Of a stretch of DNA of 64,000 bases, positions 41,693 through 41,935 are shown piece by piece (position 1 is the first letter of the stretch; each line of letters begins with the position of its first letter). The stretch lies in NCBI RefSeq assembly GCF_044647545.1, contig NZ_CP172818.1; one strand, written 5' to 3'. Source of the stretch: Escherichia coli. Its GTDB lineage: Bacteria > Pseudomonadota > Gammaproteobacteria > Enterobacterales > Enterobacteriaceae. The notes under the pieces are model-generated. The model had not been told where the DNA came from. It searched no databases and saw only the letters and a list, made by a program, of their open reading frames with translations. Made by a program: the position numbers and the translations under genes.

Positions 41693-41935
41693 ATGAAAAA
41701 AGTTCTGTATGGCATTTTTGCCATATCTGCGCTTGCGGCGACTTCTGCGTGGGCTGCACCTGTACAGGTGGGCGAAGCGGCAGGATCGGCAGCAACGTCG
41801 GTTTCGGCGGGGAGTTCCTCCGCGACCAGCGTCAGCACCGTAAGCTCGGCGGTGGGTGTCGCGCTCGCGGCAACCGGTGGCGGTGATGGTTCTAATACCG
41901 GGACCACAACAACCACGACCACCAGTACCCAGTAA
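41693..41935 (+). CDS. yjbE: Small secreted low-complexity protein YjbE
   Basis: 80-aa ORF with signal peptide [21 protein letters not shown], then a Gly/Ser/Ala/Thr-rich region ending in a poly-Thr tract; GGGAAA before the ATG. Confidence 0.8.

Follow-up and report, generated by a model that had tools for sequence, protein, structure and literature searches.

Conserved, putative RcsB-type boxes upstream of yjbE and an invariant threonine tail in its product at the head of the Escherichia coli yjbEFGH operon

Introduction

What might a very small, low-complexity protein do at the head of an envelope-related operon, and which sequences upstream of its gene are likely to control it? The yjbE locus of Escherichia coli raises both questions. 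The yjbEFGH operon is activated by RcsA-RcsB and has been tied to an exopolysaccharide other than colanic acid (PMC5461412, PMC5651002, PMC3599342); in the literature its expression is RcsAB-dependent and co-induced in envelope stress. In E. coli K-12, yjbE (Pfam PF11106, 'exopolysaccharide production protein YjbE') is the first gene of yjbEFGH (Ferrieres et al. 2007, as cited in later papers). A first-pass annotation of the locus analysed here had described yjbEFGH as an Rcs-regulated exopolysaccharide operon, in agreement with these papers, and had speculated that a repeated motif in the AT-rich DNA upstream of yjbE could be a regulator-binding site or curved DNA. We examined the locus within a 64,000-nucleotide stretch of E. 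coli DNA (the window), and compared it with other strains, species and genera. The features referred to below are collected in Table 1.

Table 1. Positions of the genes, DNA sites and RNA elements at the yjbE locus, in window coordinates
Feature	Position	Strand	Basis
STnc430 match (Rfam RF02053)	41347..41496	-	72.6 bits against a gathering score of 47
Perfect 13-bp inverted repeat after pgi	41354..41382	no strand	Inverted-repeat search
Site 1, distal RcsAB-box-like, TGAGGTTAATCCTAAAAT	41429..41446	+	Conservation; predicted
Site 2, inverted RcsB-type half-site box, minus-strand GCGTATTTTCCGAAATC	41465..41481	-	Conservation; predicted
Repeat copy 1, AAGCTTATGATTT	41508..41520	no strand	Sole match to the earlier pattern
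Repeat copy 2, AAGCTTATATTTG	41545..41557	no strand	8-mer in common with copy 1
Site 3, proximal, TTCCAATTATCCTAAAAC	41565..41582	+	Conservation; predicted
Promoter core, TTAGTTGTGTATACTCGAT	41618..41640	+	Near-invariant over 79 species
-10 element, TATACT	41628-41633	+	Conservation
5'-terminal mRNA hairpin, GCCCGAAA-UGU-UUUUGGGU	41641..41659	+	MFE fold
Ribosome-binding site (RBS) hairpin, UCC.AUUCA with UGAAG.GGA	41665..41685	+	MFE fold
yjbE coding sequence	41693..41935	+	ORF list, PF11106
Signal-peptide codons 1-21	41693..41755	+	Sequence inspection; predicted cleavage AWA|AP
Invariant C-terminal module, codons 52-80	41846..41932	+	pN/pS, alignment
Thr7 run	41903-41923	+	Read from sequence
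yjbE-yjbF hairpin, AUAACCACAC-UCCG-GUGUGGUUAU	42003..42026	+	Intergenic fold, z = -4.2
yjbF	42049-42687	+	Pfam PF11102, E 6e-64
yjbG	42684-43421	+	Pfam PF20616 plus PF06251
yjbH	43421-45517	+	Pfam PF06082, E 2e-270

Results

yjbE heads a conserved operon

The open reading frame consists of 80 codons, beginning with ATG, plus a stop, and its translation is exactly that quoted in the first-pass annotation. The product matches Pfam family PF11106 (YjbE) over its full length (residues 1-79 of 79; 113.6 bits against a cut-off of 27.9; E 5e-33), every RefSeq match listed is annotated as yjbE, and yjbFGH lie downstream; the name given to the gene is therefore borne out. The locus is carried by 5421 of 5426 complete E. 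coli genomes, and yjbE is near-universal in the species. A blastn search of all E. coli genomes with the 65-nt AT-rich stretch 41498-41562 gave no matches, most probably through low-complexity filtering. For comparisons within E. coli we used 14 sequences, comprising the window and 13 strains spread over the identity range. The YjbE protein of the window is the commonest E. coli form and was the same in 10 of the 13 strains. Searches of NCBIfam with the four operon proteins gave zero matches, and an exact look-up in a cluster collection found neither the 80-aa nor the 82-aa YjbE. A word-indexed protein search with YjbE returned mainly frameshifted or truncated variants; an exhaustive profile search was more useful.

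Downstream of yjbE are yjbF/gfcB-, yjbG/gfcC- and yjbH/gfcD-type genes, in that order, as in 79 other species. The start and stop codons of neighbours among yjbF, yjbG and yjbH overlap, and beyond yjbH lie yjbT (on the opposite strand) and then psiE. Judged by Pfam families, there are no glycosyltransferase genes within the operon. The neighbours pgi, yjbF, yjbG, yjbH and psiE are shared with the K-12 locus, which differs from that of the window strain in carrying a 144-bp REP-type insert after pgi and in ~4% of the bases of the intergenic region. The feature is the known gene yjbE at the head of the known yjbEFGH operon; it is ordinary, with nothing new in the gene itself.

A chance repeat in a hypervariable spacer upstream of yjbE

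The region 41400-41690 is strongly AT-rich, as had been noted (69.4% A+T compared to 48.4% for the window, which ranks it among the richest 1.7% of 291-nt windows), and reaches 81% A+T between 41440 and 41570. The first-pass annotation had also placed two copies of AAGCTTAT(G/A)ATTT in this region, and that claim failed: the pattern has a single match, at copy 1, even with one mismatch permitted, and AAGCTTATRATTT is fitted by one site only. Copies 1 and 2 have in common only the 8-mer AAGCTTAT, at a spacing of 37 nt; a wider comparison gives 11 nt at 91% (TT[TG]AAGCTTAT). At least one repeated 8-mer was found in 90% of Markov-1 simulated regions matched for length and composition. The real region has seven repeated 8-mers, a count reached in 16% of the simulations.

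It is very improbable that the two AAGCTTAT motifs act as a repeated regulator site, or as part of a curved-DNA element, in the control of yjbE. The 8-mer is indeed present twice, at an interval of 37 bp, where the DNA is very rich in A+T, and the TTTTAA and TGATTTTT that flank copy 1 show conservation across 79 species. However, there is only the one match to the pattern, a repeated 8-mer is expected by chance at the rate simulated above, and most of the sampled E. coli strains have substitutions in both copies. K-12 reads AAGTTTAT and AAACTTAT at the two positions, AAACTTAT is also found at copy 2 in six other sampled strains, and both copies are intact in just two of the 14 E. coli sequences (the window and one other strain). 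The CTTAT core of copy 1 varies among E. coli strains and is not conserved from one species to another, and copy 2 is likewise unconserved, with a per-base conservation of 10-60% over 79 species. Both copies fall within 41497-41565, the most polymorphic part of the locus, where 19 of 69 sites vary among the 14 E. coli sequences compared to 7 of 127 in the promoter and UTR. The first-pass annotation had held that repeats not conserved among E. coli genomes would speak against its idea, and the 14 sequences show just that. The repeat is a chance match within a hypervariable spacer.

Three conserved RcsB-type boxes lie on either side of the spacer

Scanning 41400-41690 for Rcs-type motifs, as the first-pass annotation had proposed, did recover such a motif, but elsewhere than the repeats it had singled out. 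Site 1 has the skeleton T-N-A-G-N5-TC-Y-N-AA, which 76 of 77 species have at an identical position and which is invariant in the 14 E. coli sequences, and it contains TCCTAAAAT, a sequence given as an RcsB half-site in a preprint (10.1101/2025.05.13.653802). Site 2 was found in 76 of the 77 species and site 3 (TC-Y-N-AA) in 74; all three boxes, the general form of which is TC-Y-N-AAAA, are present together in 74. The published RcsB half-site is TC(T/C)NA in a pseudo-palindromic 14-mer layout (PMC7913699), and variation in the boxes is limited to the Y and N positions of this half-site. Within the 64-kb window ATCCTAAAA occurs only twice, at sites 1 and 3.

The RcsAB consensus is reported to be TaAGaatatTCctA (Wehland and Bernhard 2000). 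The 14-mer of site 1, TGAGGTTAATCCTA, agrees with this consensus at 10 of 14 positions, counted with no scoring matrix, and retains all of the strongly conserved ones (T1, A3, G4, T10, C11 and A14). The strict RcsB homodimer box, TN(G/A)GAN4TC(T/C)NA, has zero exact matches in the window; site 1 departs from it at position 5, which is never A in any species.

The distances between the sites fall into discrete classes. Sites 1 and 2 are separated by 45/46 bp in 68 species or by 35 bp in seven, a difference of ~11 bp, and site 3 is 53-55 bp upstream of the -10 hexamer in 66 species or 42-43 bp in eight. Such ~11-bp classes fit a constraint on the face of the DNA helix that the sites occupy. Comparative sequence data of this kind strongly support the proposal that the three predicted RcsB-type half-site boxes set up yjbE transcription. 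The putative yjbE boxes share the half-site and the 14-mer layout with known RcsAB- and RcsB-box promoters (cps/wza, rcsA, osmC and rprA), but there are three of them, including the inverted distal pair, where those promoters have one.

The TCCTAAAAT half-site has also been linked, in a 2026 reporter study, to an unidentified osmotic activator, with yjbE named as a candidate target. In the K-12 yjbJ promoter, a target of this activator, TCCTAA lies ~13 nt upstream of the -10 element, whereas the corresponding distance at yjbE is 54 nt. Given the different distances to the -10 element and the different left halves, we do not claim that the yjbE box is the same type of site as that of yjbJ.

The distal boxes overlap a minus-strand match to a small-RNA family

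Part of the AT-rich region is also covered, on the minus strand, by a match to the full model of STnc430 (positions 1-162), an enterobacterial small-RNA candidate, and 11 of 20 other genera have such a match at the syntenic position. In the alignment to the model, the 13-bp inverted repeat that follows pgi falls on the terminal stem; it is predicted to be a two-way terminator hairpin common to pgi and STnc430. Since sites 1 and 2 lie inside this family, constraint at the level of the RNA could add to their conservation. An alternative is that the blocks within 41429-41481 are conserved as the main stem of the minus-strand small RNA and not as protein sites. The full-length matches above the gathering score, here and in the other genera, speak for this, as do the pairing of the two blocks, which are inverted repeats, in the Rfam consensus structure, the terminator hairpin at the 3' end, and a conserved TAAAAT-like -10 sequence just upstream (41503-41508, minus strand). 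However, RNAalifold found no consensus structure over the STnc430 region in 64 species. Nor does site 2 covary with site 1: the two variable stem positions lack covariation, and Watson-Crick pairs at them are rarer than under independence. Moreover, the RNA does not include the third copy of the half-site, which keeps a fixed distance from the yjbE -10, the 11-bp spacing classes suit a helix-face constraint, and a literature search gave no description of an STnc430 RNA. We thus consider conservation as an RNA stem, in place of protein sites, to be unlikely, although the two readings are compatible and both can hold. At yjbE the main 'stem' behaves like two independent protein half-sites, and what Rfam records as the 'sRNA' STnc430 may in large part reflect an RcsB enhancer module that is constrained in its helical phase.

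The promoter core and three RNA hairpins

The promoter core contains no recognisable -35 element, and a simple scan of 41300-42100 for consensus sigma-70 promoters and terminators was empty. The absence of a -35 and the empty sigma-70 scan fit an activator-dependent promoter. Transcription probably starts near 41640, and the message would then open on the 5'-terminal hairpin, the stem of which is kept via compensatory or wobble changes (CCCG/UGGG or CCUG/CAGG, depending on the species) while its loop varies freely. The RBS hairpin spans the Shine-Dalgarno sequence AAGGGA (41680-41685). Neither arm changes over 79 species, while the loop ranges from 1 to 5 nt and unpaired positions differ. A third hairpin, between yjbE and yjbF, has a stem that is invariant in all genera and mostly carries a UUCG loop and a UUAUUUUG tail. 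It is likely to be an attenuator, or a barrier that stabilises the yjbE message, and an invariant hairpin at this place points to an excess of YjbE over YjbF, YjbG and YjbH.

The low-complexity protein is under strong purifying selection

The N-terminus of YjbE is Sec-like, with an MKK n-region (KK), a hydrophobic core and small residues at -3 and -1. As read from the sequence, it has recognisable n, h and c regions as well as an AXA site, in keeping with the signal peptide noted in the first-pass annotation. The Ala at -1 and the overall layout are kept in all YjbE orthologues, and the signal-peptide codons show unusually low synonymous divergence (pS 0.28 compared to 0.47 in the mature part). 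The mature protein would comprise 59 residues, 76% of which are Gly, Ser, Ala or Thr; in composition and sequence YjbE is the low-complexity protein with a poly-Thr tail that had been described.

The C-terminal module has a pN/pS of 0.019 (pS 0.42; 56 species), compared to 0.165 for yjbF, and the profile search showed that it is preserved in remote PF11106 members too. Comparing the length of the threonine tract across strains, as the first-pass annotation had suggested, and across species showed that it is not variable. Seven threonines are present in 13 of the 14 E. coli sequences, the exception being MRSN346638, where an insertion of ACCACA gives nine, and in 75 of 80 sequences overall (74 of 79 matched by the search pattern, plus L059, which the pattern missed yet which has Thr7). 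Across species, 52 different codon strings are used for Thr7; in the window the codons are mixed (ACC ACA ACA ACC ACG ACC ACC). The nine-Thr strain is what a slippage-prone simple repeat giving length variants between strains, in the manner of a contingency locus, would produce. But mixed codons and a length held at seven through so many codon strings make this reading scarcely credible. A contingency-locus tract is rejected, because its units would be homogeneous and length differences between strains frequent. At the amino-acid level, purifying selection on 'low-complexity' YjbE is very strong, and it extends to the Thr run, which is fixed at seven. That the tail is among the most constrained parts of the operon argues for a specific functional element and not filler.

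Comparison of YjbE with GfcA

The gene for GfcA (YmcD) opens the group 4 capsule operon (gfcABCDE-etp-etk) and lies ahead of genes for paralogues of YjbF, YjbG and YjbH. The layout of GfcA resembles that of YjbE, with a signal peptide ending in AFA|AP followed by a region rich in Thr and Gly, a hydrophobic stretch of Gly, Ala and Val, and GDG...NT-S-TTT-STTR at the C-terminus. GfcA has been described in the literature as natively unstructured. The two proteins also differ, GfcA having 101 residues to the 80 of YjbE, an N-terminal Thr-rich block and a longer hydrophobic stretch. GfcA did not match PF11106, and hhalign aligned the two over residues 1-26 only, the signal peptide (probability 58%); no sequence homology to GfcA was detected. 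The genes gfcE, etp and etk (the wza-wzb-wzc paralogues), with which the gfc operon ends, are absent downstream at the yjb locus; the true gfc operon is elsewhere in the K-12 genome.

The likeness to GfcA bears on where YjbE resides. RefSeq names GfcA a 'threonine-rich inner membrane protein', and it is conceivable that YjbE is a membrane-embedded or regulatory subunit whose Gly/Ala/Val segment spans the inner membrane, with the Thr tail in the cytoplasm. GfcA and remote PF11106 members have a longer hydrophobic segment (e.g. GVGAVAALLGVALATMGGG), and many of them end in Arg or Lys, as the positive-inside rule predicts. In YjbE itself, however, the hydrophobic run is only ~8-10 residues (AVGVALAA; E. 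coli and 79 relatives), too few to make a membrane helix, and the last residue is frequently Gln; the hairpin after yjbE moreover points to a high copy number relative to YjbFGH. We regard a membrane subunit as quite unlikely.

Discussion

The best overall explanation of these observations, and one that we consider probable, is that yjbE acts as the first gene of an RcsA/RcsB-activated yjbEFGH operon along the following lines. An inverted pair of RcsB-type boxes, ~165-205 bp upstream of the proposed start, and a third at about -69 would feed an activator-dependent promoter with a TATACT -10 and no -35. The yjbE mRNA would begin with a stabilising hairpin, a second hairpin would sequester the ribosome-binding site, and the stem-loop 3' of yjbE would raise the abundance of YjbE over that of YjbF, YjbG and YjbH. 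YjbE would be exported by Sec and the signal peptide then cleaved, and the mature, unfolded 59-residue peptide would serve the outer-membrane machinery of YjbF, YjbG and YjbH as its cargo or as a stoichiometric partner. The invariant Thr7-ST tail would be a recognised, or possibly sugar-modified, element linking this machinery to surface polysaccharide. Export, followed by a role as partner or cargo of YjbFGH with a recognised tail, is the most likely mechanism for the protein, and we propose it tentatively, at somewhat less than an even chance.

Several published observations touch on this protein mechanism. The N-terminal barrel of YjbH has been described as FapF-like, FapF being of the family of an amyloid-subunit secretion channel (PMC8346858), and for the paralogue GfcA both sugar modification and export by way of GfcD have been proposed (PMC8592465). 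There is a functional analogy to FapC-FapF and CsgA-CsgG: like these cargos, YjbE is small, predicted to be unfolded and to be exported by Sec, and barrel-adjacent, and the hairpin 3' of its gene suggests excess production. YjbE has no amyloid repeats and no sequence similarity to FapC or CsgA, so that the analogy is a lead and not a statement of membership.

AlphaFold2 models were uninformative on docking and so lend it no support: the YjbE part was unstructured (pLDDT 21-38) in a YjbH-linker-YjbE fusion, and had a pLDDT of 24-28 in a YjbG-YjbF-YjbE fusion built with a paired alignment. Searches of PDB sequences with YjbH and with a YjbE profile found no solved structure of a relative. An operon without glycosyltransferase genes was counted as supporting the cargo idea; that the 'Yjb exopolysaccharide' is chemically undefined in the literature was counted against the overall explanation.

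For specialists, the analysis offers the exact coordinates of three conserved, putative RcsB-type boxes with a spacing that shifts in whole helical turns only, and two RNA hairpins that may govern how YjbE is translated and its level relative to YjbFGH. A further, rather unlikely reading takes peptides of the YjbE type, with their signal peptide, Gly/Ala/Ser region and invariant tail GGGDGSNTG-Thr7-ST, for the true cargo or anchor of the double-barrel machinery YjbFGH/GfcBCD. The exported peptide, possibly carrying sugars on the Thr tail, would tie capsule or exopolysaccharide chains to the cell surface. If true, this would explain the absence of sugar-transferase genes from the operon, a 'low-complexity' tail that is frozen across genera, and the Rcs envelope alarm when yjbE is severed from yjbFGH.

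Identity and distribution of yjbE

The first-pass annotation called this gene yjbE and quoted its protein. Both were correct, since the Pfam matches, the neighbouring genes and the RefSeq annotation agree and a yjbE-annotated locus is nearly universal in E. coli; the gene is one already known. When complete E. coli genomes were searched with a 621-bp query across the intergenic region and ORF, 5,421 of 5,426 matched once, annotated as yjbE, and the other five had no match at all. Over this query, identity of the window was 100% with strain FDAARGOS_497 and ~96% with K-12 derivatives. 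Its YjbE is the commonest in E. coli, with an identical protein in 10 of 13 sampled strains.

Features of the pgi-yjbEFGH locus
Feature	Position	Strand	Description
pgi	39690-41339		upstream neighbour of yjbE
pgi-yjbE intergenic region			353 bp
STnc430 (Rfam RF02053)	41496-41347	minus	full-length match, 72.6 bits (gathering score 47)
perfect hairpin	41354-41382		end of STnc430; also 3' of pgi (shared pgi terminator hairpin)
site 1	41429-41446		TGAGGTTAATCCTAAAAT; conserved block upstream of yjbE
site 2	41465-41481	minus (reading)	GCGTATTTTCCGAAATC; inverted copy of site 1 half-site
site 3	41565-41582		TTCCAATTATCCTAAAAC; conserved block upstream of yjbE
leader hairpin 1	41641-41659		stem kept by compensatory/wobble changes (CCCG/UGGG, CCUG/CAGG); loop varies freely
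leader hairpin 2	41665-41685		UCC.AUUCA paired with UGAAG.GGA; covers Shine-Dalgarno
yjbE	41693-41935	plus	80-codon ORF; Pfam PF11106 (YjbE), E 5e-33, full length
yjbE-yjbF stem-loop	42003-42026		10-bp stem, AUAACCACAC-loop-GUGUGGUUAU
three ORFs 3' of yjbE			stops/starts overlapping or adjacent; PF11102 (YjbF/GfcB), PF20616 + PF06251 (GfcC N-/C-terminal domains), PF06082 (YjbH)

Isolate AB66 aligned to the window at 41340-41609 only; here an IS1A element stands in place of everything from the promoter-proximal region to yjbG, yjbE and yjbF included, and yjbH is truncated, making the isolate a natural knockout of the operon. In Citrobacter amalonaticus AUH_CA_2023_1, the yjbE frame is broken within the signal-peptide codons by a frameshift or an assembly error. 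Immediately 3' of the pgi stop codon, K-12 and several other strains carry a 144-bp REP/BIME-type insert that is absent at window 41339/41340, and an E. whittamii insert at the corresponding place (L006:1663-1733) matches Rfam naRNA4 (RF02564; 80.9 bits).

The upstream repeat is not conserved

The region upstream of yjbE (41400-41690) is strongly AT-rich, as first described, with 69.4% A+T versus 48.4% for the window (top 1.7% of same-size windows). It had also been said to hold two copies of a motif, speculatively a regulatory one. The pattern AAGCTTATRATTT gave a single match (41508-41520) even at one mismatch; the second site (41545) reads AAGCTTATATTTG and has an 8-mer alone in common with copy 1. 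At least one repeated 8-mer arose in 90% of Markov-1 simulations of a region of matched length and composition, a chance-level repeat.

Thirteen E. coli strains spanning the identity range were set against the window. Besides the window, just one strain had both AAGCTTAT copies intact; K-12 has AAGTTTAT and AAACTTAT at the two sites, and other sampled strains have AATCTTAT, AACTTTTT, AACATTAT, AACACTAT or AACTTCAT. Polymorphism at the locus peaked in the repeat-bearing segment (41497-41565), with 19/69 sites variable against 7/127 for promoter and 5'UTR and 8/243 for the coding sequence. For comparison across species, a YjbF-based scan gave 80 loci of other Enterobacteriaceae species, 78 of them alignable upstream of yjbE. 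Copy 2 was unconserved in this alignment (10-60% per base), and conservation of copy 1 was limited to its flanks, TTTTAA and TGATTTTT. Failing conservation among both strains and species, the repeat does not survive as a regulatory motif.

Within copy 1, 41510-41514 (GCTTA), between the conserved ATTTTAA and TGATTTTTA, is a local diversity hotspot with at least eight alleles among the 14 E. coli strains.

Three RcsB-type boxes and a probable promoter core are conserved

Sites 1-3, which are putative RcsB-type half-site boxes, were all present in 74 of the 77 species with enough upstream sequence. Sites 1 and 3 hold the two sole occurrences of ATCCTAAAA in the 64-kb window. Each site varies between species as TC-(C/T)-N-AAAA (TCCTA, TCTGA, TCCGA, TCTTA). 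The published RcsB half-site is TC(T/C)NA (PMC7913699), and the variation therefore falls exactly on its degenerate positions.

Downstream, TTAGTTGTGTATACTCGAT (41618-41636) hardly changes across 79 species and contains TATACT (41628-41633), likely the -10 element. No -35 element was found at the yjbE promoter by promoter scan or cross-species alignment. A conserved -10 without a -35 fits an activator-dependent promoter, and we infer one here, with transcription starting near 41640. The distance from site 1 to site 2 was 45/46 bp in 68 species, 35 bp in seven and 29 bp in one outlier; site 3 lay 53-55 bp from the -10 hexamer in 66 species, and in eight the gap was 42-43 bp. Each distance has two spacing classes ~11 bp apart. 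Indels of one helical turn are expected under a face-of-helix constraint on bound proteins, and these steps fit such a constraint. The spacer between the distal sites (41447-41464) is 11 bp shorter in E. coli, E. whittamii and the Kluyvera group, and that between site 3 and the -10 is 11-12 bp shorter in another species set.

Site 1 retains the strongly conserved positions of the RcsAB box (T-AG-----TC--A); its position 5 departs from the strict RcsB-homodimer pattern. The operon is reported to be an RcsA-RcsB target, co-induced with colanic-acid genes in envelope stress (PMC5461412, PMC5651002, PMC3599342). For an unidentified osmotic activator whose motif ends in TCCTAAAAT, a 2026 reporter preprint puts yjbE forward as a candidate target. 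The K-12 yjbJ promoter (L096:2940-3060, minus strand), reportedly targeted by an unidentified osmotic activator, has half-sites TTCTGAAT and ATCCTAAG 13 bp apart, directly upstream of a CTACACT -10 element; the half-site type is like that upstream of yjbE but the arrangement differs.

The arms of the main stem of STnc430, an Rfam sRNA family whose match recurs in the corresponding syntenic position in 11 of 20 further genera, are sites 1 and 2. Its two variable stem positions (CG 23, CA 20, UG 17, UA 4; and UC 26, GA 22, UA 12, GC 4) do not covary, Watson-Crick pairs being rarer than independence predicts, and RNAalifold found no consensus structure for the region in 64 species. The lack of covariation and of a consensus structure suggests that sites 1 and 2 owe their conservation chiefly to a role as DNA sites. 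An RNA may nonetheless be transcribed here; the conserved minus-strand TAAAAT overlapping repeat copy 1 would be its -10 element. A literature search on STnc430 found nothing informative.

RNA hairpins flanking yjbE

The yjbE leader RNA is predicted to fold as two hairpins. In the second, the arms are invariant and variation is limited to unpaired positions and loop length; neither this hairpin nor the signal-peptide codons matched any Rfam family. Those codons (41693-41755) have a lower pS (0.28 versus 0.47 for the mature part), which suggests that constraint reaches into the start of yjbE. Together with the covered Shine-Dalgarno, this suggests translational control of yjbE, e.g. by small RNA, protein or temperature. 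In a Pseudocitrobacter MAG, the start codon lies ~86 bases farther from the promoter core.

Across all genera (79 species), the stem separating yjbE from yjbF shows no variation; its loop is UUCG in most species and UCCG in E. coli, and a U-rich tail usually follows. The intergenic RNA fold has z = -4.2. A stable hairpin directly after the first gene of an operon is the usual route to greater abundance of the first product, and this one would raise the YjbE : YjbFGH ratio. The intergenic length is usually 75-80 nt and is longer in 17 of 80 sequences (128 nt in both E. coli and E. whittamii; 103-202 nt in scattered other lineages); in E. coli the ~50 additional nt come after the stop codon and ahead of the hairpin. 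Strain 7/2 has a 72-bp insert between the genes (window ~41969; GTTGCAGGAAGGCGACAAGCGAGTGAGTCCCCGGGAGCATAGATAACTATGTGACCGGGGTGAACGAGTGCG), presumably similar to a short ERIC/IRU-type repeat.

Constraint on YjbE and its possible function

YjbE had been described as a secreted, low-complexity protein. Its N-terminus does have a layout typical of Sec signal peptides, with MKK, then a hydrophobic core, then AWA|AP, and 76% of the 59 mature residues are Gly/Ser/Ala/Thr, ending in a poly-Thr tail. Across 56 species, pN/pS was 0.084 for the mature peptide, 0.165 for yjbF and 0.019 (at pS 0.42) for the C-terminal 29 codons of yjbE, and YjbE is nearly invariant even in genera with YjbF down to 64% identity. 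The length of the Thr tract is essentially fixed: exactly seven in 74 of 79 pattern-matched sequences and in one orthologue that the pattern missed, the remaining five (all Kluyvera group) having TTTTTSTTT. Thirteen of 14 E. coli sequences have Thr7 and one has nine Thr, via an ACCACA insertion. The tract is encoded by 52 distinct codon strings. On these comparisons, YjbE is not sloppy low-complexity sequence. Remote PF11106 members found by exhaustive profile search share a plan of signal peptide, Gly/Ala/Ser region, GVALA-like hydrophobic stretch, GGG-D/N-GSNTG, poly-Thr and ST-Q/R. The paralogue GfcA has a similar layout, but homology to YjbE is detectable in the signal peptide only.

Beyond the gene identity, yjbFGH synteny, selection on the peptide and conserved site architecture established here, we tentatively favour, at rather less than an even chance, a model in which YjbE is cargo or partner. 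YjbF is a lipoprotein, and the fold of its paralogue GfcB is LolA-like. The cargo reading is favoured because Pfam annotation of the four proteins gives an operon without glycosyltransferase genes, because the YjbH N-terminal barrel is described as FapF-like (PMC8346858), and because GfcA has been proposed to be sugar-modified and exported through GfcD (PMC8592465). Against it, YjbE stayed unstructured in AlphaFold2 models of both a YjbH-linker-YjbE fusion (pLDDT 21-38) and a YjbG-YjbF-YjbE fusion with a species-paired alignment (pLDDT 24-28). PDB searches with YjbH and a YjbE profile returned no solved structure of relatives. That YjbE is instead an inner-membrane subunit seems to us unlikely.

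In the proposed working of the locus, Rcs activators would bind the three predicted boxes and drive the yjbE promoter, and the leader hairpins would tune message stability and translation. On the cargo or partner model, mature YjbE would be an unfolded periplasmic peptide, partner or cargo of YjbF, YjbG and the two-barrel YjbH. Three by-products of the analysis may be worth specialist attention: the frozen Thr7 tail, the two RNA hairpins, and the three phase-locked RcsB-type boxes overlapping an Rfam sRNA.
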